This document shows, piece by piece, positions 2,472 through 63,693 of a DNA stretch of 64,000 bases. Under the pieces are notes generated by a model. That model was not told the DNA's origin and ran no database searches. It saw only the letters and a program-made list of their open reading frames with translations. The translations under genes and the position numbers were made by a program. Each line of letters starts with the position of its first letter. The stretch's first letter is position 1. The DNA is from a virus (Duplodnaviria; Heunggongvirae; Uroviricota; Caudoviricetes): IMG/VR virus record IMGVR_UViG_2541047543_000003; one strand, given 5' to 3'.

Positions 2472-3692
2472 TTAGAAGAAGCCTAGTTGTTGCTGAGAAC
2501 CTATTTCCTTACCTGATGCGTGATTAAGTTCCAGATCCTGTTCCTTCTCTTTCTTCTCAATAATTGTTATGTCTCTCCCCTTCAGTTCGGTAGCAATAAT
2601 GTTTGATACTGTCACCCAACATCCGTTAGATAGTCCAGACGCGATTCTAGGCATCAGAATCCTACCTGTAGGGAATGCCTTATTGATTGCTCTCAGAGAC
2701 TTTCTAACAGCCTCATAATCGCTATGTAGAATCGGTTGTCTTCCCCATCTAAACTGAGTGTATGCATTCACAACAGTGAAGTTTGCATCTCCGCGCTGAA
2801 GGTTCGCATAGGTGAAGGTTCCAAGCTTTTTCCTATCAGCTTTTTTAGTTCGTAGATCAGCCTGGTATGCCTCATTAAATTCTTGCTTAACTCTAAGAGC
2901 GAAACCGCTACCCATCGCATTTTGACAGTTACAACCATGAATAAGGATGTCGTATTCCTTGTTAAGCATAGCCTGTACAAAATCTCCCTTGTGAACTTGC
3001 CTAAATGGTTGGAACTCATTGTATTTCTTCTCAACATACTCCAGCGGATCAAATCCAAAGTGTTGAAAAATCATATGTCGCGCATTTTCGAGTTTCTGAT
3101 CAATTAACACATCAATTTGAGGGTTGCCTGTATTGAATACCTTGATATTTCTTCTGCTTGCGATACGGATAGCTTGCCCCGTACCTCCAGTCTTTGAAGA
3201 TGTTTGCGATTCATCTAAAGCTCCATCAGGAGTGTGGCACATGACAAAATTCACTGGTTTCTGGAGTGTTTCTCCAAGCACCTGACAGGTGTTTCTACAC
3301 ATCATGTTTTTAGCCCCATCCACAAGATACTGCCAATCTGGATGGTGACTTTGAGCAATACTAATGATCTGATTTGTTTTAGGCGGAACGATATATTCGT
3401 TTCCATTACCCCTACCATTAAAACCAGCCCAAGGTAAGAAACAGTTTAGTACTCTTTGGTATTCACCTTTTGGTAAACCAAAATTATCTGAAAGCCAATC
3501 ATACGCAAGCTTGGAACCAAATTCTGTCGATGTGTCTATACCATCTGCCCCGCCTGTGTTGTTCGTATAACCAAACAACGCCATGCAGAATGCAAACTGC
3601 GCATGTTTTAGTGAAGTGATATGACTAACTCGCCTACTACCTATACCTGCGAAAGACCCTAAATTTGCATAGCCTACTATGGGATCAAACAT
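2472..3692 (-). CDS. SLOG (DprA/YspA-like) domain fused to a macrodomain (ADP-ribose binding/hydrolysis)
   Basis: N-term FAGIGSR...TGGADGID...FLPWAGFNG...CHTPDG...GGTGQAIRIA (SLOG-type); C-term KGD...IHGCNCQNAMGSGFA...VVNAYTQ...MPRIASGLSNG (phage-type macrodomain). Confidence 0.8.
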   Translation of the reverse strand: MFDPIVGYANLGSFAGIGSRRVSHITSLKHAQFAFCMALFGYTNNTGGADGIDTSTEFGSKLAYDWLSDNFGLPKGEYQRVLNCFLPWAGFNGRGNGNEYIVPPKTNQIISIAQSHHPDWQYLVDGAKNMMCRNTCQVLGETLQKPVNFVMCHTPDGALDESQTSSKTGGTGQAIRIASRRNIKVFNTGNPQIDVLIDQKLENARHMIFQHFGFDPLEYVEKKYNEFQPFRQVHKGDFVQAMLNKEYDILIHGCNCQNAMGSGFALRVKQEFNEAYQADLRTKKADRKKLGTFTYANLQRGDANFTVVNAYTQFRWGRQPILHSDYEAVRKSLRAINKAFPTGRILMPRIASGLSNGCWVTVSNIIATELKGRDITIIEKKEKEQDLELNHASGKEIGSQQQLGFF

Positions 3693-8344: not shown

Positions 8345-8419
8345 TTATTTGATAACTATAATCTAAAAGTGCCAAGCCCTGCTTGCAGGGCTTGATTAAT
8401 AATTAAATTGGAAAAGTTT

Positions 8420-10507
8420 ATGAAAAATACGATCCGTGTGAGCACCTGCTCTCTTAATCAGACCCCTATGGACTGGTATGGCAACATCGAAAACATCAAA
8501 GAAGCCATTCAGCAGGCAAACAAGGATGGCGCAGCAATTCTTATCACCCCTGAATTGTCAATCACAGGCTATGGTTGTGAAGATTTCTTCTACACGCCTC
8601 ATCTAAGTGAAGAAGCTTTAAAACACACCCTAGAACTCACTCAACACGTTCCTGAAACGATGGTTGTAGCGGTTGGTCTTCCTGTTCTGATCAACAACCG
8701 TGTTTATAACGGTGTTGCTATGCTTACTCACAACGGGATTAAAGGCATCTCACTGAAACGAAATCTTGCAGCAAACGGTCTTCATTATGAGCAACGCTGG
8801 TTCACTCCTTGGACAAGCAAGAAAAACGCACTAATCAACCTTCCTGGCATCGAAGAAGAAGTTGCAATTGGCAATATCGTTTATGATGTAAACGGGGTAA
8901 AGGTTGGTCTTGAAATCTGTGAAGATGGTTGGGTATCAGCTCGTACAGCACAAGGTCTTTTCGAACAGGGTGTAGACATTATAGCTAACCCAAGTGCGAG
9001 TCACTTCTCGATTGGGAAATTCCTGACGCGTAAGCGTCTGGTAGAAGAATCAAGCCGCGCATATTCAGCTTGTTACGTGTATTCAAACCTATCGGGTTGT
9101 GAATCGGGTCGTTCTATCTATGATGCTGGCGCGATGATTGCTGTAGACGGTAAACTCGTCAAGCAAGGTAAGCGATTCCACTATTCTAGCTGTGAAGTTG
9201 TAACTGCCGATATCGACCTATCTCAAAGCCGCATTGGTCAGATTAATACTAGCCAGCGTTACTACTCTGACTTTAACGCAGAGAATCAAACTATCAAGGT
9301 CAAACTTGAGCACAATTTTGACTCGAAAATCTTAGATAAGTCTTTCGACATTGAAGCTTGGGAATTGAGTGATAATCTGGCTCATGAGGAAGCCATTCGA
9401 GCAATTTCAATTGGCTTGCGTGACTGGTCAAGAAAAACAAAAACTCAAGGGTACGCTCTTTCTCTTAGTGGTGGCGCTGACTCGGCTCTTGTAGGTTCAG
9501 CAACATTCCTATCTGTGTACTTTGAGCTTGCTGAATTGATCAGCAAGAAAGGCAATGGCGACTTCTCTCTCCCTGAGCATTTTCTTCAATACATGGATGA
9601 TGAATTGGTTAGCAAACTAGAGTCACTAGATAGCTCTAATGATTCTTTGCATAAACTCAAAGTCGATATTTGCCCTTCAATTGTATCCAAGTACCTAACT
9701 TGTGCATATCAAGGTTCAAGTAATAGTGGCGATGTGACACTTAACGCAGCGAAGTCACTTGCTCGTGAAATTGGCTCAAAATTCCACAACTTTAATATTT
9801 CTAATCTTGTTGATAGCTATGAAGGCATGATTGGTACATCACTCGGTATCGAATTTGATTGGGATAAACACGACATCGCCCGTCAAAACATTCAAGCTCG
9901 CGTTCGTTCTCCGAGTATTTGGATGGTCGCGAACCTTGAAAACAAACTTTTGCTAACCACCAGCAATATGTCAGAAGGCGCGGTTGGATATGTAACAATG
10001 GATGGTGATAGTTCTGGTGTTCTAGCGCCAATTTCAGGGGTAACGAAAACTCGAATCCTCTCTATGTTGCAATGGCTGGAAGAAAAAGGCGTAACAGTAA
10101 ATGAGGATTATTCTGTATGCCTGCACTCTCTGAGCTTCATCAATAACCAAAGACCTACCGCTGAGCTTAGACCTACTGCACAACAAGACGAAGATGATTT
10201 GATGCCATTCCCTATCCTAGATCGCATCCTAATCCTTACTCTAGAAGCAGGAAAAAGCCCAACTGAAACATGGGAAGCCATCTGTGTTGAGTTCCCGAAC
10301 TTCAGTAAGGCAACTTTGTGTCAATACGTGGTACGTTACTTCCAGCTACTATTTAGAAACCAATGGAAGCGAGATCGTCAAGCTCCAGGTTTCCACATTG
10401 AGATTAACAGCCTGGATCCAAAAACGTATAAGCGATTCCCTCTTCTTTCATCAGCATATGAAAAAGAAATCTTAGAATTACAAGCAGAAGTAGATACTTT
10501 TCACTAA
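8420..10507 (+). CDS. nadE: glutamine-dependent NAD+ synthetase (nitrilase + NAD synthase domains); ATG 8420 preferred over TTG 8408
   Basis: PELSITGY, EICED (nitrilase E-K-C triad), LSLSGGADS, QNIQARVR, TTSNMSE, PTAEL, QDEDDL, QWKR. Confidence 0.95.
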   Translation: MKNTIRVSTCSLNQTPMDWYGNIENIKEAIQQANKDGAAILITPELSITGYGCEDFFYTPHLSEEALKHTLELTQHVPETMVVAVGLPVLINNRVYNGVAMLTHNGIKGISLKRNLAANGLHYEQRWFTPWTSKKNALINLPGIEEEVAIGNIVYDVNGVKVGLEICEDGWVSARTAQGLFEQGVDIIANPSASHFSIGKFLTRKRLVEESSRAYSACYVYSNLSGCESGRSIYDAGAMIAVDGKLVKQGKRFHYSSCEVVTADIDLSQSRIGQINTSQRYYSDFNAENQTIKVKLEHNFDSKILDKSFDIEAWELSDNLAHEEAIRAISIGLRDWSRKTKTQGYALSLSGGADSALVGSATFLSVYFELAELISKKGNGDFSLPEHFLQYMDDELVSKLESLDSSNDSLHKLKVDICPSIVSKYLTCAYQGSSNSGDVTLNAAKSLAREIGSKFHNFNISNLVDSYEGMIGTSLGIEFDWDKHDIARQNIQARVRSPSIWMVANLENKLLLTTSNMSEGAVGYVTMDGDSSGVLAPISGVTKTRILSMLQWLEEKGVTVNEDYSVCLHSLSFINNQRPTAELRPTAQQDEDDLMPFPILDRILILTLEAGKSPTETWEAICVEFPNFSKATLCQYVVRYFQLLFRNQWKRDRQAPGFHIEINSLDPKTYKRFPLLSSAYEKEILELQAEVDTFH

Positions 10508-22721: not shown

Positions 22722-24788
22722 ATGAATTCTCCTGCTCAGATTTTAAATGATAGTGCAATTGGAACTTTTCAATCACTAATGTTACGTGATGATAAAGGTA
22801 GCTATGAACACTACTTGGCTATGGTGTCATTTGCGAACAAATGCAGCAATCAATATTATGTAAATGATGTATCAATCATTCCTGATGCAGATTACGACAT
22901 CCTGTACCGAGAGATTCAAGGTTTCGAAAATTCCAACCCTGACAAAACGGAACCTACTTCGCCAACTCAGCGTGTAGGCGACAAGCTTTCTGATAAGTTC
23001 AACTCTGTTAAGCACAAGAAGCCTATGCTGTCACTTGATAACGCCTTCGACAATGATGAGCTTAAAAAAACGATGGATGGTAAAGCAAGTGCTGGTGGCA
23101 AATACGTAGCTGAATTGAAGTTGGACGGTCTAGCACTATCTATCTTTTACAAAAACAATAAATTTGCTTACGCTTTGACAAGGGGCGATAAAGAGTTTGG
23201 TGAAGATGTAAGCCATACCGTTAGAACCATTACTGACATTCCTATGGAACTCGATTGTGATGTCATCATCCCAGAGCTTGAGGTTCGAGGTGAAGGCTTT
23301 ATGATGAAGCAGGCGTTAGAAGATTTCAATGCAAAGGCAGAAGCAAATGGTAAGAAGAGCTTATCTAACGCAAGGAACGGTGCTGCTGGCGCTATCCGCC
23401 AACTTGATCCTAAGCTAGCTAAATCAAGAAAGCTTAGTTTCATTCCTTATGGCTTAGGTTATATGGAAAGTGGTGATCTCGAAATTTCTAACAGTCATTT
23501 TGAGCGACTATCCATGCTGCATAAATTTGGCTTCCGTAAAAGCTCATACACCAAACAACTTTCATCACTTGAAGATATGTATAATTTCTATGATGAAATT
23601 GAAAAAATCCGTTCTGATATTCCTTTTGACATCGATGGCATTGTTTTCAAAGTTGATGATGTTGAAAGACAGGAAGAGCTAGGATACACAAACAGAATCC
23701 CGCGTTTTGCCATTGCGAGAAAATTCCCTGCAATGACCGCTAACACGACTTTGAAATCTTCAGATACTCAAGTTGGTCGTACAGGAATTTTGACTCCTAT
23801 GGGGCGCGTAGAGCCTGTACATTGTGGTGGCGTTACTGTGTCCAACATCACCCTTCATAATTTTGAGAAGGTAGAAAAATTCGGCTTGCGAATCGGTGAT
23901 ACTGTAACTATTTCACGCAGAGGCGATGTCATCCCACATCTTGAGGGGGTGCTTGAATCAAATGGTGGTGAACTAATTAAACCGCCAACTCACTGTCCAG
24001 TATGTAATGCACCTACTATGACCAAACCAAATATTGTTGGTATCTTTTGTAGTGCAAGATTAACCTGTCCAGCTCAGGCTATTGAAGCGATCTCTCACTT
24101 CACAGGCAAGAAGCAGATGAATATTGACGGTATTGGTGAAAAGATTGTTGAAGCGCTGTATGAAAAAGGCGCAATTAAAAACGTCCTTGATCTGTACAAA
24201 CTAGATATTGACGACATTCAATATCTACCAGGCAAAGGATTCGCAAGTGCTAAGAAAGCTATTGCGAGCATTGAGGCTTCAAAACATTGCCGTTTGGATA
24301 AGTTCATCAACAGCATTGGTATTCCTGGTGTTGGTGAATCAACGTCAAATGACTTAATGAAATACTTTGGCTCCCTAGACGCTATTATGAATGCCAGCCA
24401 TGATGAATTAATCAAAGTAAATGATGTCGGTGATGGTACGGCAAACAACATCATTGAGTTCTTTGCTAACCAAGAGAACATTGACCTTATCAATGGTCTT
24501 CTTGAAGTAGGAATTACCTTTGAAGAGATCGAATCTGCATCAAGTGAATTAGCAGGTCAAACGTGGGTTGTTACTGGCACATTGGAAAACTTTGATAAAA
24601 ACAGCATCAAAGAACTCCTTCAACAGAAAGGCGCTAAAGTAAGTAGCTCTGTAAGTAAAAAGACAAGCGCTGTTCTTTATGGTGATAAAGCTGGAAGCAA
24701 GCTTTCTAAGGCGCAAGAACTGCAAAACAACGGCGTTGATATTAAGATTTTAAACGAAGCCGACTTCATGGCTCAATACATGAGCTAA
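22722..24788 (+). CDS. ligA: NAD+-dependent DNA ligase
   Basis: ELKLDGLA (KxDG), EVRGE, DIDGIVFK, PRFAIARKF, zinc finger CPVC..C.....C, HhH repeats, BRCT domain. Confidence 0.97.
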   Translation: MNSPAQILNDSAIGTFQSLMLRDDKGSYEHYLAMVSFANKCSNQYYVNDVSIIPDADYDILYREIQGFENSNPDKTEPTSPTQRVGDKLSDKFNSVKHKKPMLSLDNAFDNDELKKTMDGKASAGGKYVAELKLDGLALSIFYKNNKFAYALTRGDKEFGEDVSHTVRTITDIPMELDCDVIIPELEVRGEGFMMKQALEDFNAKAEANGKKSLSNARNGAAGAIRQLDPKLAKSRKLSFIPYGLGYMESGDLEISNSHFERLSMLHKFGFRKSSYTKQLSSLEDMYNFYDEIEKIRSDIPFDIDGIVFKVDDVERQEELGYTNRIPRFAIARKFPAMTANTTLKSSDTQVGRTGILTPMGRVEPVHCGGVTVSNITLHNFEKVEKFGLRIGDTVTISRRGDVIPHLEGVLESNGGELIKPPTHCPVCNAPTMTKPNIVGIFCSARLTCPAQAIEAISHFTGKKQMNIDGIGEKIVEALYEKGAIKNVLDLYKLDIDDIQYLPGKGFASAKKAIASIEASKHCRLDKFINSIGIPGVGESTSNDLMKYFGSLDAIMNASHDELIKVNDVGDGTANNIIEFFANQENIDLINGLLEVGITFEEIESASSELAGQTWVVTGTLENFDKNSIKELLQQKGAKVSSSVSKKTSAVLYGDKAGSKLSKAQELQNNGVDIKILNEADFMAQYMS

Positions 24789-48440: not shown

Positions 48441-49406
48441 ATGAATAAGCTAATAACCACATTAAAGAGCGCTTCTACCATAATCAGTTACAACCTAGAT
48501 TTTTTCAAAATGGTCGGTAACTACATAATCTCAGCATGTTTAATCTTCTATGCAGCAAGCCTATGGCCTGTGATGGACGAACTACTAACCCTGAGCGAAA
48601 ATAGTCTAAAAGAGGGAGCGATTTCCACGTCAGTCATTACAACTCTTGTTTTGTGTTCAACTTTATTTTTGAATTTTATACTTAGACTAGTTGGTATGTT
48701 CCAATATGGTTTAGCTGGCATTACAGCTATCAAAATCTCTGTTGAAATTACACTATTGCTTTTTTTAATTTCATTCGTTAGTCAAGATTCAGTTTCAGCC
48801 ACAATTGACCAACCAGAAAATCAAGCAATCGTCTTATTCCTGTTAATTGTGTTTGGTTATTTGTTCAACCCTTTGAGACTGTTCGAACGAACAAACTCAA
48901 ATATACAAATTTCAAGCTGTGCAAAATATGTAACATCATACGACGATTCCCAATCCCGCCTTATTGCTTATCATGAGTGCGGACATCTTATCGCCTATCT
49001 AGATGCTCTTGGGGATAAAGAGGACAAAGGATTAAATATTTACACATCAAAAGAAAAAGGTTGTGTTTATACTCCTAATAGCCATCTTTTGACATGTGAA
49101 CAACATGTCTACCTATGCCTTGCTGGGTATGCAGCAGAATTACTTTACATGCCATCTATCGCTAACAACTGGCAGTCTTTTAGACAATCATCTGACTATA
49201 TAAATGCCGCTAAGTTAATTTATGCAATCAAAGGCAGAGAAGAAACTCTATATGATGAGGAATTTGACGTTTATATGAAGCGGACAATTGAAATTCTAAT
49301 TAGAAATAAGCTGCTATTTGATAGGTATTTCGAAGAGGTTTTAAACAAAAAAATTCTGTTAAGCGATGAGATTTACGAACTAAAAAGGGGCTTTGCCCCT
49401 CAATAA
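48441..49406 (+). CDS. membrane protein with M41 (FtsH protease domain-like) metallopeptidase, no AAA domain
   Basis: Four TM segments then AYHECGHL and LAGYAAEL. Confidence 0.7.
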   Translation: MNKLITTLKSASTIISYNLDFFKMVGNYIISACLIFYAASLWPVMDELLTLSENSLKEGAISTSVITTLVLCSTLFLNFILRLVGMFQYGLAGITAIKISVEITLLLFLISFVSQDSVSATIDQPENQAIVLFLLIVFGYLFNPLRLFERTNSNIQISSCAKYVTSYDDSQSRLIAYHECGHLIAYLDALGDKEDKGLNIYTSKEKGCVYTPNSHLLTCEQHVYLCLAGYAAELLYMPSIANNWQSFRQSSDYINAAKLIYAIKGREETLYDEEFDVYMKRTIEILIRNKLLFDRYFEEVLNKKILLSDEIYELKRGFAPQ

Positions 49407-49425: not shown

Positions 49426-49501
49426 TAGTGTATCGAAGTGGAATTGAACCACTGACGCAAAGAACTTCAATCTTCCGCTCTACCAACTGAGCTATCGAGG
49501 C
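49426..49501 (-). tRNA. tRNA-Phe(GAA), degenerate
   Basis: Anticodon arm intact; acceptor stem has mismatches at 2:71 and 3:70; 3' end reads CTA. Confidence 0.7.
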
Positions 49502-49506
49502 ATAAT

Positions 49507-49582
49507 TGGAAGCGAGAGAGGGAATCGAACCCCCGACCTCCAGGATATGAACCTGGCAAGCTAACCGCTGCTCTATCTCGCA
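49507..49582 (-). tRNA. tRNA-Met(CAT), initiator-like
   Basis: U1:U72 mismatch, A11:U24, CCAGG-TTCATAT-CCTGG. Confidence 0.85.
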
Positions 49583-49585
49583 AAC

Positions 49586-49662
49586 TGGTGGAGATGGAGA
49601 GAATTGAACTCCCGACATGCAGCCTATGAAACCGCCGCTCTAACCAACTGAGCTACATCTCC
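49586..49662 (-). tRNA. tRNA(CAT), elongator Met or Ile2
   Basis: GCGGT-TTCATAG-GCTGC, CCA end. Confidence 0.85.
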
Positions 49663-49668
49663 AAAATA

Positions 49669-49744
49669 TGGAGCCTAGAGGCGGATTCGAACCCCCGACC
49701 TGCTCATTACAAGTGAGCTGCTCTCCCAACTGAGCTATCTAGGC
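49669..49744 (-). tRNA. tRNA-Thr(TGT)
   Basis: GCTCA-CTTGTAA-TGAGC. Confidence 0.95.
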
Positions 49745-49745
49745 A

Positions 49746-49822
49746 TGGTTCCCCTTGCTGGACTTGAACCAGCGACCTCACCCTTATCAGGGGTGTGCTC
49801 TAACCAACTGAGCTAAAGAGGA
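49746..49822 (-). tRNA. tRNA-Ile(GAT), chimeric with the acceptor stem of the tRNA-Lys type
   Basis: CACCC-CTGATAA-GGGTG in a TCCTCTT/AAGGGGA stem. Confidence 0.9.
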
Positions 49823-49860
49823 ATTATTTCTAAAGCACTCTCGTAAAAGCACTTGAGAAA

Positions 49861-49937
49861 TGGCGGGTGATCTAGGACTTGAACCTAGCACCTGTTGGTT
49901 AACAGCCAACCGCTCTAACCAGATGAGCTAATCACCC
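49861..49937 (-). tRNA. tRNA-Asn(GTT)
   Basis: GTTGG-CTGTTAA-CCAAC, G73. Confidence 0.95.
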
Positions 49938-49943
49938 TAAATC

Positions 49944-50019
49944 TGGAGCCTAGAGGCGGAATCGAACCCCCGACCTGCTCATTACAAGTGAGCTGCTCTC
50001 CCAACTGAGCTATCTAGGC
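49944..50019 (-). tRNA. tRNA-Thr(TGT)
   Basis: Near-identical to 49669. Confidence 0.95.
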
Positions 50020-50020
50020 A

Positions 50021-50097
50021 TGGTTCCCCTTGCTGGACTTGAACCAGCGACCACATGATTAAAAGTCACATGCTCTAACCAACTGAGCTAAAGAGGA
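50021..50097 (-). tRNA. tRNA-Lys(TTT) type A
   Basis: TGTGA-CTTTTAA-TCATG. Confidence 0.93.
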
Positions 50098-50135
50098 ATT
50101 ATTTCTGAAGCACTCTCGTAAAAGCGCTTGAGAAA

Positions 50136-50211
50136 TGGCACTGCCAACGAGGATCGAACTCGTGTTACAAGCTTGAAAGGCTTGTGTCCTAACCAACTAG
50201 ACGATAGCAGC
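50136..50211 (-). tRNA. tRNA-Glu(TTC)
   Basis: CAAGC-CTTTCAA-GCTTG, G73. Confidence 0.93.
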
Positions 50212-50215
50212 GCAA

Positions 50216-50292
50216 TGGTGTGTCGGGCAGGAATCGAACCTGCGACCTACGGGTTAAAAGCCCGTTGCTCTAACCTACTGAGCTAACGACAC
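50216..50292 (-). tRNA. tRNA-Lys(TTT) type B
   Basis: ACGGG-CTTTTAA-CCCGT. Confidence 0.95.
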
Positions 50293-50296
50293 AAAG

Positions 50297-50373
50297 TGGC
50301 GGGTGATCTAGGACTTGAACCTAGCACCTGTTGGTTAACAGCCAACTGCTCTAACCAGATGAGCTAATCACCC
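50297..50373 (-). tRNA. tRNA-Asn(GTT)
   Basis: Copy of the Asn gene. Confidence 0.95.
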
Positions 50374-50379
50374 TAAGTT

Positions 50380-50456
50380 TGGTTCCACCTGCTGGACTTG
50401 AACCAGCGACCACATGATTAAAAGTCACATGCTCTAACCAACTGAGCTAAAGAGGA
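50380..50456 (-). tRNA. tRNA-Lys(TTT), chimeric 3' acceptor strand from tRNA-Ile
   Basis: 5' TCCTCTT with 3' AGGTGGA gives a U4:U69 mismatch. Confidence 0.85.
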
Positions 50457-50494
50457 ATTATTTCTAAAGCACTCTCGTAAAAGCACTTTAGAAA

Positions 50495-50570
50495 TGGCAC
50501 TGCCAACGAGGATCGAACTCGTGTTACAAGCTTGAAAGGCTTGTGTCCTAACCAACTAGACGATAGCAGC
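50495..50570 (-). tRNA. tRNA-Glu(TTC)
   Basis: Copy of the Glu gene. Confidence 0.93.
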
Positions 50571-50574
50571 GCAA

Positions 50575-50651
50575 TGGTGTGTCGGGCAGGAATCGAACCT
50601 GCGACCTACGGGTTAAAAGCCCGTTGCTCTAGCCTACTGAGCTAACGACAC
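50575..50651 (-). tRNA. tRNA-Lys(TTT) type B
   Basis: Copy with one D-loop change. Confidence 0.93.
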
Positions 50652-50655
50652 AAAG

Positions 50656-50732
50656 TGGCGGGTGATCTAGGACTTGAACCTAGCACCTGTTGGTTAACAG
50701 CCAACTGCTCTAACCAGATGAGCTAATCACCC
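50656..50732 (-). tRNA. tRNA-Asn(GTT)
   Basis: Copy of the Asn gene. Confidence 0.95.
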
Positions 50733-50738
50733 TAAGTT

Positions 50739-50814
50739 TGGTTCCACCTGCTGGACTTGAACCAGCGACCTTACCCTTATCAGGGGTATGCTCTACCAAC
50801 TGAGCTAAGGCAGA
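50739..50814 (-). tRNA. tRNA-Ile(GAT)
   Basis: TACCC-CTGATAA-GGGTA. Confidence 0.93.
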
Positions 50815-50821
50815 ATTAAAA

Positions 50822-50897
50822 TGGCGGAGATGACGGGGATTGAACCCGCGACCTCTTGCGTGACAGGCAAGCGTCATAACCACTAGACTACATCTCC
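50822..50897 (-). tRNA. tRNA-Asp(GTC)
   Basis: CTTGC-CTGTCAC-GCAAG, G73. Confidence 0.95.
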
Positions 50898-50902
50898 AAA
50901 TG

Positions 50903-50978
50903 TGGAGCACTGTGGCAGATTTGAACTGCCGAATAATGGATTTGCAATCCACCCTCTTAACCACTTGAGTAACAGTGC
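50903..50978 (-). tRNA. tRNA-Cys(GCA)
   Basis: GTGGA-TTGCAAA-TCCAT, U73. Confidence 0.93.
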
Positions 50979-50979
50979 A

Positions 50980-51055
50980 TGGTGCATCCTACTGGTCTCG
51001 AACCAGTGACCTCTTCTTTGTAAGAGAAGCGCTCTCCCAACTGAGCTAAGGACGC
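50980..51055 (-). tRNA. tRNA-Val(TAC)
   Basis: CTTCT-CTTACAA-AGAAG. Confidence 0.95.
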
Positions 51056-51060
51056 GTAAC

Positions 51061-51136
51061 TGGTGGAGGCAAAGGGAATCGAACCCTCGACAACTGACTT
51101 GCAAAGCCAGCACTCTACCTACTGAGTTATACCCCC
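51061..51136 (-). tRNA. tRNA-Ala(TGC)
   Basis: CTGGC-TTTGCAA-GTCAG, G3:U70. Confidence 0.95.
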
Positions 51137-51140
51137 AAAA

Positions 51141-51216
51141 TGGTGCCTCGAAGTGGAGTTGAACCACTGACGCGAAGATCTTCAATCTTCCGCTCTACCA
51201 ACTGAGCTACCGAGAC
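51141..51216 (-). tRNA. tRNA-Phe(GAA)
   Basis: GAAGA-TTGAAGA-TCTTC, CCA end. Confidence 0.95.
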
Positions 51217-51220
51217 AAAT

Positions 51221-51296
51221 TGGATGCGAGAGAGGGAATCGAACCCCCGACCTCCAGGATATGAACCTGGCAAGCTAACCGCTGCTCTATCTCGCA
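51221..51296 (-). tRNA. tRNA-Met(CAT), initiator-like
   Basis: As 49507 but U1:A72 paired. Confidence 0.88.
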
Positions 51297-51299
51297 AAC

Positions 51300-51376
51300 T
51301 GGTGGAGATGGAGAGAATTGAACTCCCGACATGCAGCCTATGAAACCGCCGCTCTAACCAACTGAGCTACATCTCC
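51300..51376 (-). tRNA. tRNA(CAT), elongator Met or Ile2
   Basis: Copy of 49586. Confidence 0.85.
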
Positions 51377-51382
51377 AAAATA

Positions 51383-51458
51383 TGGAGCCTAGAGGCGGAT
51401 TCGAACCCCCGACCTGCTCATTACAAGTGAGCTGCTCTCCCAACTGAGCTATCTAGGC
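51383..51458 (-). tRNA. tRNA-Thr(TGT)
   Basis: Copy of the Thr gene. Confidence 0.95.
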
Positions 51459-51459
51459 A

Positions 51460-51536
51460 TGGTTCCCCTTGCTGGACTTGAACCAGCGACCACATGATTA
51501 AAAGTCACATGCTCTAACCAACTGAGCTAAAGAGGA
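51460..51536 (-). tRNA. tRNA-Lys(TTT) type A
   Basis: Copy of 50021. Confidence 0.93.
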
Positions 51537-51574
51537 ATTATTTCTGAAGCACTCTCGTAAAAGCACTTGAGAAA

Positions 51575-51650
51575 TGGCACTGCCAACGAGGATCGAACTC
51601 GTGTTACAAGCTTGAAAGGCTTGTGTCCTAACCAACTAGACGATAGCAGC
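51575..51650 (-). tRNA. tRNA-Glu(TTC)
   Basis: Copy of the Glu gene. Confidence 0.93.
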
Positions 51651-51654
51651 GCAA

Positions 51655-51731
51655 TGGTGTGTCGGGCAGGAATCGAACCTGCGACCTACGGGTTAAAAGC
51701 CCGTTGCTCTAACCTACTGAGCTAACGACAC
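51655..51731 (-). tRNA. tRNA-Lys(TTT) type B
   Basis: Copy of 50216. Confidence 0.95.
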
Positions 51732-51735
51732 AAAG

Positions 51736-51812
51736 TGGCGGGTGATCTAGGACTTGAACCTAGCACCTGTTGGTTAACAGCCAACTGCTCTAACCAGATG
51801 AGCTAATCACCC
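51736..51812 (-). tRNA. tRNA-Asn(GTT), first gene of the array
   Basis: GTTGG-CTGTTAA-CCAAC. Confidence 0.95.
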
Positions 51813-52008
51813 ATAATTTATAAGACAACTAAAATCTAATTGCCTTATAAATTATTTTTATCTCTAAAAATAATTCAAGGTCGCCTTGGTTGCAAATCAA
51901 ACTATTCCATTAAATTTGGGTGAAATGGTGTTGATTTAGCGACCTAACCCGAATCAAGATTACAAACATTTATATTTATATTCTCAATCCGAATTTTACA
52001 ATCCAAGT

Positions 52009-52020
52009 TGTTAAAGAACA
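52009..52020 (-). promoter_or_regulatory. boxA-like antitermination element
   Basis: TGTTCTTTAACA on the minus strand, one mismatch to rrn boxA TGCTCTTTAACA, directly after the attenuator U-tract. Confidence 0.65.
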
Positions 52021-52115
52021 AAAAAGCCCAGTGAAACTTAAGGAAGTCTCACTGGGCTAATCATAGCTTATGTGTAGTTTGAGACTTCCGCCTCAACCAC
52101 TTTTAAGTATGAGGC
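52020..52115 (-). terminator. attenuator B (proximal): mutually exclusive hairpins plus intrinsic terminator
   Basis: S1 GCCTCA 52110-52115; S2 TTGAGGC 52090-52096; S3 GGAAGTCTCA 52080-52089; antiterminator partner TGAGACTTCC 52042-52051; 13-bp terminator with U-tract 52020-52058. Confidence 0.85.
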
Positions 52116-52118
52116 AAA

Positions 52119-52244
52119 TCAAGTTGTAATTTCGATCTTATTATCCACGTTCATTTTTTTCGCACAGCAAATATCAGCCGCAATTGCGTTAAACATCGCA
52201 TCGCACTTCTCAATTTTTACTGTCGTAAATGTCGTGATAAACAT
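52119..52244 (-). CDS. leader peptide B, 41 aa: MFITTFTTVKIEKCDAMFNAIAADICCAKKMNVDNKIEITT
   Basis: RBS AGGATTTTATT-ATG; uses exactly the 11 amino acids of the downstream tRNA array; stop codon directly before attenuator B. Confidence 0.85.
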   Translation of the reverse strand: MFITTFTTVKIEKCDAMFNAIAADICCAKKMNVDNKIEITT

Positions 52245-52276
52245 AATAAAATCCTGATAAATGGTTTTTTTAATAC

Positions 52277-52369
52277 AAAAAAGTCAGCTTAGCTATCGCC
52301 TCGCTGACTCTATACAAGAAAATCTTGAAATCTTTGAGGCAACCCTCAAAGATACAAATATCCTGAAGG
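52277..52369 (-). terminator. attenuator A (distal)
   Basis: S1 CCTTCAGGATA 52359-52369; S2 TATCTTTGAGG 52344-52354; S3 TTGCCTCAAAGA 52331-52342; terminator AGTCAGC..GCTGACT plus U-tract 52277-52309 containing GAGGCGA, complementary to S3. Confidence 0.75.
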
Positions 52370-52370
52370 T

Positions 52371-52475
52371 TTAAATATTGTTTTTACAGTCAAATTTCTT
52401 GTCTGTATTCTTCTCACAGGCAAACATATTGTCTGTGTTTGTTTCAATCGTATTTTTAGCGATGATGATAAACAT
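52371..52475 (-). CDS. leader peptide A, 34 aa: MFIIIAKNTIETNTDNMFACEKNTDKKFDCKNNI
   Basis: CAGGT RBS; uses only 10 of the 11 array amino acids and none outside that set. Confidence 0.8.
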   Translation of the reverse strand: MFIIIAKNTIETNTDNMFACEKNTDKKFDCKNNI

Positions 52476-52535
52476 AACATTACCTGTGAGTTAAAAAGTA
52501 GTTTAAGTGTTAGGCTCTTGCCTTCCGATGAGTTA

Positions 52536-52565
52536 ATAATAAACCTAAATGTTTTTTCAAGTCAA
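52536..52565 (-). promoter_or_regulatory. sigma70-type promoter of the leader A / leader B / tRNA array transcript
   Basis: TTGACT-18-TATTAT on the minus strand. Confidence 0.55.
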
Positions 52566-52641
52566 CACTTAATTTTATCTTTTTTATGTTTTTTTGGTTA
52601 AAAAAAGAAAGAGGGCTTAAAAACCCTCTTTATTCAATCAC

Positions 52642-53742
52642 TTACAAAACTTTATTTTTTGCGTTTTTTTCACCAAACTTATAGTTTTTCAACTTGAAGT
52701 TGTTTTGTAGTCGCTCTTCCAACACTCCCTCGTCATTAAAAACTAACTCTTTCCCTTCATAATACCAGGTAGATGTTCCACCTATTGGTTGAGAAAGATC
52801 ATATTTAACCGATGGGTCAAACAACTTATAAGGATTAAATCTGGTAGATTTTGAATGCTCAGTGCGGTCAAATTGATAGTTGTATTCTACTCTTTCTGGC
52901 GCACCTAGAGAAAGAAACACTTCAACCTTGTTCATACCATAATTAATTTCGCTAGACTTAATGCTGGAGTGGTGAGCCTTATGGACTAAAGGAGACTTCA
53001 ACGGATCTTTGTATACAATTCTATTGATATCAAAAGGAACATTTACCCTTTCACCATCGTCAAGCCTAACCACAAAACTAAACTGTGATTCATCTAATCC
53101 ATACCCCGTATTTAACGAGTAATCAATTTTTTCAACTTTTAGGGGTTGGTTATGCGGTACTCTAATGGTATCAGAGCTGTTCGTTCCATATACTGAGGTA
53201 TTTGTTTTATCAGCTCCTCGCCCTAAGACATAAATCGCCTTACCCGCATGTTCTTCAGCGGCTTTCAAGTCTGAATTATGGATTAACTGTAGTTGTGATT
53301 GCATTTGTCTAAATGGAAAAACACCATCCCTATCATCATTATTCTTATCAAATACTGATGCAAAATTTCCGAATTCAGGAATAACCACTTCAATGGATTT
53401 ACAATTATCCAAAACACCAGAATAAACACGATAGTGTCTAAGCTTACCAGGCTCATTAGGATCTTCATCTGTTTTTTGAATAAAACTAGTTGTATCGATT
53501 TTTAAATCACGACCATAAATATCTGATTCGGTTAGAGGTGTCTTTTGATATCTTTCATACAAGTATGAATAAGAGTCTTGAGGAAGATTATTCATTCTAT
53601 TATTGAACTTGAGTTCGGCAGAGACATTCCCCGCTTCGAACTCAAGCCCACGAATAACTTTGTAATTGCATTCGCTTGCGAATGCTGTAGATGAGATGAC
53701 GCCAATAGCTAGGGCTATAGTCGTTTTCAGAAATTTATTCAT
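52642..53742 (-). CDS. secreted hypothetical protein
   Basis: Signal peptide ...STAFA; C-terminal GMNKVEVFLSLGAPERV...WYY (SmpA/BamE-like pattern). Confidence 0.7.
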   Translation of the reverse strand: MNKFLKTTIALAIGVISSTAFASECNYKVIRGLEFEAGNVSAELKFNNRMNNLPQDSYSYLYERYQKTPLTESDIYGRDLKIDTTSFIQKTDEDPNEPGKLRHYRVYSGVLDNCKSIEVVIPEFGNFASVFDKNNDDRDGVFPFRQMQSQLQLIHNSDLKAAEEHAGKAIYVLGRGADKTNTSVYGTNSSDTIRVPHNQPLKVEKIDYSLNTGYGLDESQFSFVVRLDDGERVNVPFDINRIVYKDPLKSPLVHKAHHSSIKSSEINYGMNKVEVFLSLGAPERVEYNYQFDRTEHSKSTRFNPYKLFDPSVKYDLSQPIGGTSTWYYEGKELVFNDEGVLEERLQNNFKLKNYKFGEKNAKNKVL

Positions 53743-53800: not shown

Positions 53801-54607
53801 CTAGGAATTAATAACCAACTCTATTCTTTTTTGCATATCTAAAGAAACGTTGATGCCGTTACACTGTAACATGTTCATCATATCTCTGATTAGCAATACC
53901 GCATCACTTTCCACCTTGTCTGAAGATGTAATAACTTCACTATCAATCTCAGTATCAGGAGAAAGGTCTGTTACGGTACAGGAGAAAGCTGTAGCAAGCT
54001 TAATTAGTAATTCATTATTTACAGGAGCTTTACCATTAATAATTTGGGAGAAACCCGCTTGCGTTTTGAGTCCAAGCTTTGACTGACAGAATTCTTGTTG
54101 AGTCATACCTGTCATATCTTGGTATTCCTGCCATCTCATTTTAATGTTTTTAGCTACCTTTTTCATTTTTTCTGAGCTTAAACCACATTCACTTGAGCGC
54201 TTTTCTTTTAAGAAGCTTTTAAACTCTGCATGATTGAAATCATACTTGATCATTTGAGGCTCAACATCCAGTCCAGAAGCAATTTTATCAATTACACTAT
54301 CACCGAGCGGAAGTGTGCCTTTTAAATAGGCTGAGAAGTTTGAAGTAGTAGTCCAACCAATGCTTTTACAAAAAGTGCTACGTGTAATATTTTCCCTTTC
54401 TGAATATTGCTCCCAAAGAAGATTTAAGCTTTCTCTGGCTTTATCCTGAATTTTTGATTCAATAAGTGACGCTGAATCAGACTTACTCAGGTACAATGCA
54501 TTTAAGATAGAGTCTACTGAACGATTTGTAGACATTTTATTCTCTTTTATTAGAAAATCTTTTACTTCACCACTTTGTATTGCTAAAGCTTTCATTAAAT
54601 TCACCAA
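53801..54607 (-). CDS. transcriptional regulator with two Cro/CI-like HTH domains
   Basis: ITRSTFCKSIGWTTTSNFSAYLKG...KIASGL and MTQQEFCQSKLGLKTQAGFSQIING...KLATAF. Confidence 0.75.
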   Translation of the reverse strand: MVNLMKALAIQSGEVKDFLIKENKMSTNRSVDSILNALYLSKSDSASLIESKIQDKARESLNLLWEQYSERENITRSTFCKSIGWTTTSNFSAYLKGTLPLGDSVIDKIASGLDVEPQMIKYDFNHAEFKSFLKEKRSSECGLSSEKMKKVAKNIKMRWQEYQDMTGMTQQEFCQSKLGLKTQAGFSQIINGKAPVNNELLIKLATAFSCTVTDLSPDTEIDSEVITSSDKVESDAVLLIRDMMNMLQCNGINVSLDMQKRIELVINS

Positions 54608-54670: not shown

Positions 54671-55135
54671 TTAGTACGGTAGATCGTCTTTGTATTCGAA
54701 CATATTCTCCCCATCTCTCAACGGGTTTTGTTGTTGATATTCTCGATAGTCAGATTGCTGAGTCTGGTATCGTTGCTGTTGCCCTGCTGTATTGCGTAGT
54801 GCTTTTGATTCATTAATGTATTTAGCACCAAGAACAACTTTCATATCAATTTGGTTGCAAGAAAATCCAAGACCTACAAATATATCTGTATTTATTAAGT
54901 AATGCTTTCCAGATAGTGTGACAATGGCACCTATCCCTATAAGCCCTTCTTTTATTACGTTTTCAAGGCTATTTCTGTTCGGAGAAAAAATATTGCACTG
55001 ATACCATTGATCTACAGACCGACCATTAATGAAGTCATTGACACAAACTGGAACTTTTATAAAGTATCCATTTTTCCCTTGTTTTATTTCTGGGTGCTTT
55101 CCAATTCTACCTAATATTACTGTATTCTGAGACAT
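54671..55135 (-). CDS. ssb: single-stranded DNA-binding protein-like
   Basis: VILGRIGKHPEIK, QWYQC, GAIVTLSGK; Q-rich linker; acidic tip YKDDLPY. Confidence 0.7.
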   Translation of the reverse strand: MSQNTVILGRIGKHPEIKQGKNGYFIKVPVCVNDFINGRSVDQWYQCNIFSPNRNSLENVIKEGLIGIGAIVTLSGKHYLINTDIFVGLGFSCNQIDMKVVLGAKYINESKALRNTAGQQQRYQTQQSDYREYQQQNPLRDGENMFEYKDDLPY

Positions 55136-58283: not shown

Positions 58284-59795
58284 TTAATCTTGCTTGCTTA
58301 ATTCGATTCTAGGAAACTCTCGAACTTTTTCAATTTGGTTAATATCAACTCGCACGATACCATCAGACAAGCTCAGTTTAGCTTCGCCTTCTTTTAGATC
58401 ATTCACGCTAGTAACAAGTGTTTCATCCTGGTTAACTAATGAGTATCCCTTATTTAAGATAGCAATAGGGTTGTTCATCATAATCATGATTAGCTTTTCT
58501 TTACGAATATTATCCGCTGAAACAAGAGTGTCTTTTGATATCGAAGATATAGATGTGATTTTTTGGTCAAGAGCGTTTCTTGCTCTCTCAATCACGACTG
58601 CACTGTTATCAATAATTCTTGACACCTTACTGTCCAATGCGCTTTTAGCAAGCAATACGCTTTTTTCGGACAAGCTTATGATCCGTTCGAAATTTCGAGC
58701 ATCCTTCTCTGATGATGAAATGATTACATCTCTAATCATATTTACGACCATCGAAGGTGTTGCACATCTGGTATGTGCAATTTCATCTATAATTGTATTG
58801 TCTCTTTCATGCCCGATACCGCAGAATATCGGCGCATTAAGACATAGCAGCGATTTAGCTATTTCATACTCATTTAAGGCATATAAACCTGCTTTATCAC
58901 CACCACCACGAATCACACATACCGCATCGAATGGATTTCTTTCATGATCAGCATTTATCTTACTCACTGCTGAAGTGATCGTGTTTATGGAGTTATTCCC
59001 CTGGAAAGTTGCAGAATAATAACTGAATTTACATAGACCTAAACTATCCAAAAGTGATGATTGCGTCTGAAAGTCACCCAAGCCAGCAGCCATATCTGGA
59101 GATAGAACTGCAACTCTGAAAAAGTTATTTGGTGCCTTCATTCTCTTGTTGTTAAGAAATATTCCCTCAGATCTTAATCTATCTCTAATTGCATTTAGCT
59201 TTGCTTCCATCTCACCTATAGTAAATGATGGGTTGATATCAATGATGTTCAGACTTAAGCCGTACTTCTCGCTGAACTCAGGTTTTACACAGATAAGAAC
59301 CTTCATGTTATGAGCCAGCTTCATGCCTGTTGAACACTCAAATTTGCTTATAATGTCTTTTCTCTTGCTCCAAATCATACCTCTAGCTTTCGCCAATTCA
59401 GAGCCATTCGAATCATAATCAGAAAGCTCTAGGTACACATGTGAGTTACCAGTAATATTTGAAATTTCAGCAGTAAGCCATGAGCCTTCAGTGAAGGTTT
59501 CTTCCATGAGGTTTTTAATTACACCCAAATATACTGACAAGCTCGATGGCTTATTGCTCTGCTTGTTCAGCATATGCTGAAACTTGGGTGTCCACCATTT
59601 CTTGAAAGCGGTAACATCAATGCCTTTTGGTACGTACCAACAAACAAACGCACCATTACTTGAGTAAGGTAAAGCACCTAGTCTTTTTGCTTCTTCACGC
59701 TCCCCAAATGGGACTTCGAGCCGTAATTTTCTGTCTAGAATCATTGAAATCTCCATTTTTGGTAAATTATACATGAAATCTATCCTGTAAACCAC
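58284..59795 (-). CDS. xseA: exonuclease VII large subunit with N-terminal DUF5710-like extension (start may be ~59756)
   Basis: LEVPFGEREEAKRLGA...WYVP; WLTAEISN..G.SHVYLEL, FDAVCVIRGGG, GIGHERD.TIID.IA....TPS, ILNKGYS. Confidence 0.92.
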   Translation of the reverse strand: MVYRIDFMYNLPKMEISMILDRKLRLEVPFGEREEAKRLGALPYSSNGAFVCWYVPKGIDVTAFKKWWTPKFQHMLNKQSNKPSSLSVYLGVIKNLMEETFTEGSWLTAEISNITGNSHVYLELSDYDSNGSELAKARGMIWSKRKDIISKFECSTGMKLAHNMKVLICVKPEFSEKYGLSLNIIDINPSFTIGEMEAKLNAIRDRLRSEGIFLNNKRMKAPNNFFRVAVLSPDMAAGLGDFQTQSSLLDSLGLCKFSYYSATFQGNNSINTITSAVSKINADHERNPFDAVCVIRGGGDKAGLYALNEYEIAKSLLCLNAPIFCGIGHERDNTIIDEIAHTRCATPSMVVNMIRDVIISSSEKDARNFERIISLSEKSVLLAKSALDSKVSRIIDNSAVVIERARNALDQKITSISSISKDTLVSADNIRKEKLIMIMMNNPIAILNKGYSLVNQDETLVTSVNDLKEGEAKLSLSDGIVRVDINQIEKVREFPRIELSKQD

Positions 59796-62626: not shown

Positions 62627-62656
62627 TTGACTTTCCTAGACCAAGAATTATAAGCT
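62627..62656 (+). promoter_or_regulatory. sigma70-type promoter of leader C
   Basis: TTGACT (62627) with TATAAG/TAAGCT at 16/18 nt. Confidence 0.55.
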
Positions 62657-62690: not shown

Positions 62691-62759
62691 GTGAAAGCTA
62701 AAACATTTATTACCTCTAAAGTAGGTATCCAGCAACCGTGGCAACAAGCTTATGTGTAA
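62691..62759 (+). CDS. leader peptide C, 22 aa: MKAKTFITSKVGIQQPWQQAYV
   Basis: RBS AGGATTTTATT-GTG (identical to leader B); CAG CAA CCG TGG CAA CAA block matches the downstream Pro/Gln/Trp tRNAs. Confidence 0.85.
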   Translation: MKAKTFITSKVGIQQPWQQAYV

Positions 62760-62845
62760 GTTTTAGCTTTCGCATGGCTAAAACTTAGGTTTTAGCCACA
62801 GGAAAGACACCTAACCCCTGATGGCTCTCCATCAGGGGTTTTTTT
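62760..62845 (+). terminator. attenuator C
   Basis: S1 GTTTTAGC 62760-62767; S2 GGCTAAAAC 62776-62784; S3 GTTTTAGCC 62789-62797; antiterminator AGCCA-CAGG 62794-62802 with CCTG-A-TGGCT 62817-62826; terminator ACCCCTGATGG/CCATCAGGGGT plus U7. Confidence 0.85.
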
Positions 62846-62963: not shown

Positions 62964-62992
62964 TTGACAGATAAAATGTTCAGGTTTAATAT
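62964..62992 (+). promoter_or_regulatory. near-consensus sigma70 promoter directly upstream of the Pro/Gln/Trp array
   Basis: TTGACA-17-TAATAT. Confidence 0.65.
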
Positions 62993-63016: not shown

Positions 63017-63093
63017 CGGTGAATAGCGCAGCCTGGTAGCGCATCTGCTTTGGGAGCAGAGGGTCGAGAGTTCGAATCTCTCTTCACCGACCA
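63017..63093 (+). tRNA. tRNA-Pro(TGG)
   Basis: TCTGC-TTTGGGA-GCAGA. Confidence 0.96.
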
Positions 63094-63104
63094 AATTACA
63101 TTGT

Positions 63105-63181
63105 TGGGGTGTAGCCAAGTTGGTTTAAGGCAATAGACTTTGATTCTATGATCGGGGGTTCGAGTCCCTCCACCTCAGCCA
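63105..63181 (+). tRNA. tRNA-Gln(TTG)
   Basis: ATAGA-CTTTGAT-TCTAT, U1:A72, G73. Confidence 0.95.
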
Positions 63182-63193
63182 GAACAACAAAGT

Positions 63194-63268
63194 GTAGAGG
63201 TAGCTCAGTTGGTAGAGCCTCGGATTCCAAACCCGATGACGGGGGTTCGATTCCCTCCCTCTATGCCA
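63194..63268 (+). tRNA. tRNA-Trp(CCA)
   Basis: TCGGA-TTCCAAA-CCCGA (31:39 mismatch), G73. Confidence 0.9.
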
Positions 63269-63272
63269 CACT

Positions 63273-63349
63273 CGGTGAATAGCGCAGCCTGGTAGCGCAT
63301 CTGCTTTGGGAGCAGAGGGTCGAGAGTTCGAATCTCTCTTCACCGACCA
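63273..63349 (+). tRNA. tRNA-Pro(TGG)
   Basis: Second unit of the 256-bp repeat. Confidence 0.96.
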
Positions 63350-63360
63350 AATTACATTGT

Positions 63361-63437
63361 TGGGGTGTAGCCAAGTTGGTTTAAGGCAATAGACTTTGAT
63401 TCTATGATCGGGGGTTCGAGTCCCTCCACCTCAGCCA
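63361..63437 (+). tRNA. tRNA-Gln(TTG)
   Basis: Second unit. Confidence 0.95.
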
Positions 63438-63449
63438 GAACAACAAAGT

Positions 63450-63524
63450 GTAGAGGTAGCTCAGTTGGTAGAGCCTCGGATTCCAAACCCGATGACGGGG
63501 GTTCGATTCCCTCCCTCTATGCCA
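63450..63524 (+). tRNA. tRNA-Trp(CCA)
   Basis: Second unit. Confidence 0.9.
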
Positions 63525-63528
63525 CACT

Positions 63529-63605
63529 CGGTGAATAGCGCAGCCTGGTAGCGCATCTGCTTTGGGAGCAGAGGGTCGAGAGTTCGAATCTCTCTTCACC
63601 GACCA
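63529..63605 (+). tRNA. tRNA-Pro(TGG)
   Basis: Third unit. Confidence 0.96.
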
Positions 63606-63616
63606 AATTACATTGT

Positions 63617-63693
63617 TGGGGTGTAGCCAAGTTGGTTTAAGGCAATAGACTTTGATTCTATGATCGGGGGTTCAAGTCCCTCCACCCCAGCCA
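63617..63693 (+). tRNA. tRNA-Gln(TTG)
   Basis: Third unit, two substitutions relative to the other copies. Confidence 0.95.

Follow-up and report, generated by a model that had tools for sequence, protein, structure and literature searches.

Leader-peptide attenuators of enterobacterial operons include trpL, hisL, thrL, leuL, and pheL, and the leaders of ilvGMEDA and ilvBN sense several amino acids. The attenuator of the pheST operon uses the pheM leader, and leaders of the ermC and cat type respond to antibiotics, mostly at the level of translation and with no amino-acid specificity. Bacterial tRNA genes are generally held to be controlled at their promoters, by growth rate, the stringent response, and Fis. 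Genes of aminoacyl-tRNA synthetases are known to be under leader or T-box control, and ermC/cat-type leader peptides are mentioned in the same work (PMC2965389). The only studied case of a regulated accessory tRNA array that we found is the trn operon of Anabaena PCC 7120, which has 26 tRNA genes on a megaplasmid, is silent unless translation is stressed, and is repressed by TrcR (PMC10272220). Here, we analyzed a stretch of 64,000 nucleotides (IMG/VR record IMGVR_UViG_2541047543_000003, hereafter the window) in which an array of 28 tRNA genes (array 1) lies behind two small open reading frames (ORFs), A and B. We consider it likely that these ORFs and their counterparts at other arrays are, with the terminators that follow them, ribosome-mediated (leader-peptide) transcription attenuators controlling the accessory tRNA arrays of a ~0.9-Mb Vibrio plasmid or chromid. 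Attenuation of tRNA genes would differ from the known leader-peptide cases, and its parts and logic are already known. The original prediction, made from the letters of this DNA, knew of no described leader-peptide attenuator of a tRNA array. Our own literature search, with subscription journals outside its coverage, likewise gave no case of tRNA genes controlled by a leader peptide; none is described in a genome-wide survey of attenuators or in a recent paper on Enterobacteriaceae megaplasmids rich in tRNA genes.

Like the trpL-type leaders, the Vibrio units have a promoter-proximal short ORF rich in regulatory codons, an intrinsic terminator, and helices that would be set by the position of the ribosome. 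As in thrL and ilvL, a single leader would read several amino acids. Unlike the enterobacterial leaders, they would act on tRNAs instead of biosynthetic enzymes and read up to 11 amino acids, nearly every codon being a sensor. Nearest among the known cases are the leader of pheST and the thr and ilv leaders, which are multivalent. Control of pheST and T-box control of synthetase genes would share with our case the attenuation of the translation apparatus, read via the supply of charged tRNA. These systems regulate the charging enzyme of one amino acid, whereas the Vibrio arrays carry tRNA genes for sets of 3 to 11 amino acids. The Anabaena trn operon is likewise carried by a megaplasmid and consists of accessory tRNA genes that are induced under impaired translation, as is predicted for Vibrio. 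It uses a ribbon-helix-helix repressor, whereas the Vibrio arrays are predicted to use a leader ORF and a terminator acting in cis and specific to the amino acids of the array. As with the ermC and cat leaders, a ribosome stalled on the leader ORF is predicted to reshape the RNA downstream.

Array 1 was identified by ARAGORN, with agreement from Rfam, as 28 genes for exactly the 11 amino acids originally claimed. It has seven tRNAs for Lys, five for Asn, four for Thr, four with a CAT anticodon, three for Glu, two each for Ile and Phe, and single copies for Asp, Cys, Val, and Ala. The CAT tRNAs are of two types and are counted as Met by their anticodon, the candidates being elongator Met, initiator, and Ile2. 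Leaders A and B have the coordinates and translations that had been given for them, and their composition is as unusual as had been stated: B uses all 11 residue types of the array, A uses 10 of them (Val is absent), and neither has a residue outside the set. They are the only such ORFs in the window (2 of the 688 ORFs that start with ATG and encode 12-80 amino acids). The same two leaders are the only ones of at least 20 amino acids in a relative plasmid of 882,852 bp (2 of 18,533 small ORFs), which we reassembled from 45 stretches for the plasmid-wide counts. The share of residues that belong to the set is 0.52 for small ORFs and 0.60 for long ones, and these background values give a chance of about 1e-9 for the purity of B and 5e-8 for that of A. 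The match extends to the codons, since 69 of the 73 codons of A and B are strictly decodable by the anticodons of array 1, against a background of 0.50. None of the 11 Ile codons is ATA, and nine of the ten Thr codons have A or G in the third position, in line with the anticodon UGU. The number of times a residue occurs in the leaders does not track the copy number of its tRNA genes (rho 0.39, P 0.23). In a relative, leader B (L001 4379-4504) is annotated by PGAP as the hypothetical protein WP_021485665.1; A and the remaining leaders are unannotated.

The composition match is replicated at two further arrays of this replicon family that are unrelated to array 1, and this carries the main weight of the argument. 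On the other strand of the window, eight tRNA genes for Pro, Gln, and Trp (the PQW array) follow a leader that reads QQPWQQ at codons -9 to -4 relative to its stop, in what would be its sensing position. These three amino acids make up only 0.065 of the residues in the window's long ORFs. The original prediction pointed to small ORFs upstream of arrays in related replicons, and there the match recurs as well. The relative plasmid has an 18-tRNA array for Leu, Ser, Tyr, and His (the LSYH array) behind two tandem leaders (LSYH-1 and LSYH-2; MLHSYLHLSYLSLYN and MSYLSHLHYSLSYSLLST), and there is a terminator after each of the two. Among the codons of these leaders, 13/14 and 16/17 are decodable by their own array, and they sample several Leu and Ser isoacceptor families; the background share of the four amino acids in the window's long ORFs is 0.247. 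Together, the three leader-preceded arrays cover 18 amino acids. Within the window, units made of a Shine-Dalgarno (SD) site, a small ORF, and a terminator are confined to the two arrays; the 13 other intergenic regions have no such unit. A plasmid-wide scan of the relative for such cassettes returned 27 generic matches and missed both LSYH leaders (LSYH-1, with the SD site GAGGA, went undetected, and LSYH-2 has a weak SD site). Hence, it provides no sensitive census. Neither the Rfam leader families nor the T-box model had a match at E up to 1 between positions 45000 and 64000, and no leader family reached the gathering score in the LSYH locus.

The leaders of A, B, and PQW all have an SD site, a start codon, and promoter-like hexamers upstream, and a sigma-70-like promoter likewise belongs to the LSYH leaders. 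The genes downstream are tRNAs only, and not the genes of amino-acid biosynthesis, transport, or synthetases on which leader attenuators are known to act. A scan placed a promoter ahead of A and B, as claimed; its hexamers are kept in relatives, save for a T to C change at the final base of the -35 element. Terminators with a U tail follow both stop codons, as had also been proposed (that of B was found by the scan and that of A in the folds). The region behind B contains both elements of the original prediction. The hairpin TTGAGGC-GGAA-GTCTCAA lies at 52079-52096, within the switch segments, and segment S3 has a 10-bp complement in the terminator B 5' arm (52042-52051), with which it would form an antiterminator (GGAAGTCTCA/TGAGACTTCC). 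In A, the pairings S1:S2 and S2:S3 are mutually exclusive. The coordinates of all these elements are collected in Table 1.

Table 1. Promoters, leaders, switch segments, terminators, and tRNA arrays of the two leader-preceded loci in the window.
Feature	Position	Strand	Description	Basis
Array-closing terminator	49385-49401	-		scan
Array 1	49428-51812	-	28 tRNA genes	ARAGORN, confirmed by Rfam
Spacer	51813-52019	-	207 nt, from terminator B to first tRNA	
Terminator B	52020-52058	-	15-pair stem and T tract	scan (hairpin 52058-52025), folds
B switch segments	52079-52115	-	invariant in four lineages	stepwise folds
B: S1, S2, S3	52110-52115, 52090-52096, 52079-52089	-	S1 GCCTCA; S2 TTGAGGC; S3 GGAAGTCTCAA	
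Leader ORF B	52119-52244	-	41 codons, AGGA 8 nt upstream of ATG	
Terminator A	52277-52311	-	hairpin and T tract	folds, own scanner
A switch segments	52330-52371	-		stepwise folds
A: S1, S2, S3	52359-52371, 52341-52354, 52330-52340	-	S1 abuts the stop codon	
Leader ORF A	52371-52475	-	34 codons, AGG 7 nt upstream of ATG	
Promoter of the leader transcript (A and B)	52536-52565	-	TTGACT, 18 nt, TATTAT	consensus scan, 10/12 matches
Promoter-like site of the PQW leader	62627-62654	+	TTGACT, 16 nt, TATAAG	read by eye, under the scan's rule
PQW leader ORF	62691-62759	+	22 codons, GTG start, AAGGA 8 nt upstream	
PQW switch: S1, S2, S3	62760-62770, 62776-62784, 62789-62802	+		
PQW terminator	62813-62845	+	12-pair stem at 62813-62840	
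Second strong promoter of the PQW locus	62964-62992	+	TTGACA, 17 nt, TAATAT, A/T-rich tract upstream	
PQW array	63017-63693	+	8 tRNA genes: Pro x3, Gln x3, Trp x2	ARAGORN

We propose that these elements work as follows. A sigma-70 promoter would drive a short transcript whose leader ORF uses the amino acids, and for the most part also the codons, of the tRNAs downstream. When the ribosome reaches the stop codon in time, it would cover S1; S2 would then be bound by S3, and the terminator would fold and stop transcription. When decoding is slow at any leader codon, S1 would remain free and pair with S2, and S3 would then bind the 5' arm of the terminator, allowing the polymerase to continue into the tRNA genes. 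Each array would thus be expressed at times when decoding is limited by the tRNA species encoded in it. Unlike the enterobacterial leaders, this relay would have five segments, with S1 past the stop codon, such that a ribosome at the stop masks S1 and causes termination. The two gates in series that were originally proposed would hold for array 1 and for the LSYH array; the PQW array would have a single gate and its own downstream promoter.

The leader units might also give no read-through into the arrays behind them. They would then be free-standing small genes or small RNAs, the arrays would use their own promoters, and the composition match would serve another link, such as a trans-acting RNA or peptide similar to rnTrpL/peTrpL. 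The strong promoter between the PQW terminator and the PQW array would be expected in this case, and the spacer of array 1 also has a promoter-like site, a weak one (51878-51851) and the sole one there. The -35 hexamer of the latter is not kept among relatives. In addition, the LSYH array begins ~45 nt past its second terminator, and this gap is too short for a promoter. Each of the three arrays has its matching leader immediately upstream and on the same strand, and the interlocking S1, S2, and S3 would have no role in a standalone gene. RNA-library contigs from three studies span leader B and part of A, which gives weak support for transcription, as these contigs show neither ends nor strand and DNA may be present in the libraries. 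One contig of 4.2 kb begins in the upstream gene, crosses terminator A, and reaches the terminator B 5' arm. No contig covers 51835-51966, crosses terminator B by 31 letters, or joins leader B to the first tRNA; the last of these would suit free-standing units, with the limit that contigs cannot show absence. All in all, we regard free-standing units as improbable.

To follow the switch during transcription, growing transcripts were folded stepwise with the ribosome either far upstream or on the stop codon, where the 12 nt past the stop were masked. With S1 free, S1:S2 and the pairing of S3 with the 5' arm of the terminator form before the 3' arm emerges, in A, B, and PQW alike; in B, the latter pairing is the 10-bp helix of the original prediction. 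With S1 masked, the minimum-energy trajectories of the same three leaders go through S2:S3 and then to the terminator. The relay that was predicted to depend on the masking of S1 is thus reproduced in stepwise folds; at equilibrium, its score is weak relative to shuffled sequences (see below). In equilibrium folds of the full-length transcripts the terminators win, hence the switch must be kinetic. We also profiled the effect of stalling at each codon. In A and PQW, the pairing of the terminator 5' arm with upstream segments is high for all codons but the last three or four. It is 0.5-0.7 with the ribosome upstream vs 0.16-0.28 at the last codons or stop in A, and 0.55-0.59 vs 0.25-0.37 in PQW, where the drop starts directly past QQPWQQ. 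Residues outside the sets are confined to the last one to three codons of the leaders (N, T, and AYV, and an N-to-S change in the A of relatives), the N-terminal part of the PQW leader aside. This placement fits the stall profile, since a ribosome stalled there would cover S1 anyway. In the LSYH leaders the same three overlapping helices can be seen by eye, but their folding is more complex and the switches are ambiguous.

These folds also bear on the opposite logic, in which a stall on the leader would lead to termination, and the arrays would be off in starvation and made only in fast translation. Such a control would make sense in that extra tRNA is useless without amino acids, and the equilibrium folds barely separate the ribosome positions for the LSYH leaders and B. 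However, the profiles of A and PQW have the higher pairing of the 5' arm with the ribosome upstream, and the trajectories of A, B, and PQW yield the antiterminator solely with S1 free. Furthermore, the stop codons lie 75-95 nt upstream of the terminators, which precludes a direct masking by the ribosome. We therefore see little probability that the switch works in this direction. Finally, the set accounts for 52-60% of the residues in this AT-rich replicon, where intergenic DNA would give small ORFs biased toward F, I, N, K, and similar residues, but a chance origin of the composition is rejected by the counts among 688 and 18,533 ORFs and has next to no credibility, given that the two plasmid ORFs are both just upstream of the array, that the LSYH and PQW leaders match sets of low background share (0.25 and 0.065), and that the leaders also use codons that are not rich in AT, namely those for Cys, Ala, and Asp.

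Returning to attenuation, we compared the loci among relatives. Leader and switch are invariant or nearly so, and the flanks vary. In PQW, the promoter-like site ahead of the leader, the leader, and the switch are identical (100%) across three plasmids, and the spacer past the terminator varies. LSYH-2 follows this pattern too. The region of A and B differs by eight amino-acid changes among four lineages, seven of which stay within the set, the exception being codon -3 of A. The restricted composition expected of homologous loci is therefore largely kept, with this codon as the part that is not. The peptides would thus drift in sequence while keeping their composition, as expected for a leader, although the test is weak. 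The arrays vary more in content, with 17 genes of array 1 in Vibrio sp. V15, 28 in the window, and 37 in the V. parahaemolyticus relative. The arrays change faster than the leaders, and the match is not always exact. A protein search with leader B returned only three near-identical clusters, all from Vibrio, and a PLSDB search with a block of four tRNAs returned only generic tRNA similarity.

Several observations weigh against control of the arrays by attenuation. The second PQW promoter, between the attenuator and the array, is fully kept in three plasmids. A conserved promoter at this place means that the PQW gate cannot be the sole control, and the gate would add to a basal level. Over its initial 13 codons the PQW leader has no match to its array, and in the relative plasmid no matched leader was found for an Arg/Gly-containing cluster or for a single tRNA-Gly. 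The 17-tRNA array of Vibrio sp. V15 lacks tRNA-Val, yet its leader B has three Val codons; the claim that the composition is exactly that of the array thus stands for the window and not for this relative. The substitution test reaches only P ~0.08-0.12, as a random single-base change stays in the set with a frequency of 0.57-0.61, and the relatives are all 93-100% identical, which is too close for covariation. The equilibrium switch score is weakly above that of dinucleotide shuffles, being reached by 17/200 of them for A, 23/200 for B, and 12/200 for PQW, and it is not above the shuffles for the LSYH leaders (81/200 and 92/200). Promoters and terminators are present here as sequence features; translation of the leaders, function of the terminators, read-through upon a stall, and both the direction and the physiological trigger of the switch are predicted. 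The recurrence of the composition, the terminators, and the stepwise folds support the attenuator first proposed, and its translation, termination, and read-through are the parts that remain inferred.

Other observations concern the arrays and the leader transcripts themselves. The tRNA-Ile(GAU) at 49746-49822 (minus strand) shares its acceptor, D, and T arms with the tRNA-Lys(UUU) at 50021-50097 and 51460-51536, and differs from the neighbouring tRNA-Lys(UUU) solely in the 17-nt anticodon arm. It looks like an anticodon-arm swap inside array 1. In the tRNA-Lys at 50380-50456 (minus strand), the 3' acceptor strand is that of a tRNA-Ile (50739-50814), with an acceptor-stem mismatch visible by eye; this copy is probably a recombination junction between repeat units. 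A 38-nt spacer occurs four times in the array on the same strand (49823-49860, 50098-50135, 50457-50494, and 51537-51574), three of them after a tRNA-Glu. It folds as an AU-rich hairpin with no T tract and may be a processing site. In V15, one base change gives the tRNA-Ala (L010 6620-6695) the anticodon AGC in place of TGC. The transcripts of leader A (52515-52530, minus strand) and LSYH-1 (L005 ~2875-2890, minus strand) start alike right after the -10 element (TCATCGGAAGGCA and TCATCGAAGCA), which hints at a shared cassette origin or a common 5' element.

The relative 882-kb plasmid has ~85 tRNA genes in five clusters. One of them (L004, 37000-43500 of the relative plasmid) is a looser cluster of tRNAs for Arg, Met, Ser, Gly, Leu, Asn, and Lys with its own promoters, and for its G+C-rich structured gaps of 400-560 nt no Rfam family reached the gathering score. 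Upstream of it, a 60-aa ORF ends in AGA CGT AGG, the three types of Arg codons read by the Arg tRNAs of the cluster. This ORF has no terminator behind it.

In its leader region (51813-52620), the window shares 97.8% identity with two ~882-kb plasmids of V. parahaemolyticus and ~93% with the 925-kb plasmid of V. vulnificus FORC_036 and a 939-kb plasmid of V. parahaemolyticus. These four PLSDB plasmids are the only matches of the DNA search, and none was found among phage records. The FORC_36 replicon has been termed a chromid (PMC6381281). By these matches, the source of the window is of the type of a ~0.9-Mb Vibrio plasmid or chromid. The window is AT-rich (GC 33-42%), with the exception of the array. 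It has a chromosome-like set of replication, repair, and NAD genes, namely a glutamine-dependent NAD synthase, an NAD-dependent DNA ligase, the large subunit of exonuclease VII, which bears an N-terminal DUF5710, and SSB (8408-10507, 22722-24788, 58284-59795, and 54671-55135). An EAL protein is likewise encoded in the window. Two genes upstream of the array 1 leaders lies a gene for an HTH_3/HTH_26 protein (53801-54607), and the gene adjoining the leader (52642-53742) has no relatives in the genome, viral, and metagenome contig collections.

The plasmid probably makes each set of tRNAs upon slow reading of the corresponding codons. Possible triggers would be the cleavage of tRNAs by anticodon nucleases of the host or of competitors, or AT-rich genes that outrun the tRNA pool of the host. 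We lean, by a small degree, toward a more general view in which an autonomous feedback on decoding speed governs the accessory tRNA arrays of large mobile replicons and replaces exactly the limiting tRNA species. If true, this would be a direct feedback on tRNA supply, in which one cis-acting sensor follows how fast the codons of up to 11 amino acids are decoded and responds with the matching tRNAs. The leaders would then be compact natural reporters of the speed of multiple codons and could serve as tools, and the sequence alone would easily reveal the regulated tRNA arrays and the amino acids to which each of them responds. It would also help to explain how megaplasmids and giant phages manage their tRNA sets in the face of foreign codon usage and tRNA-cleaving defences.

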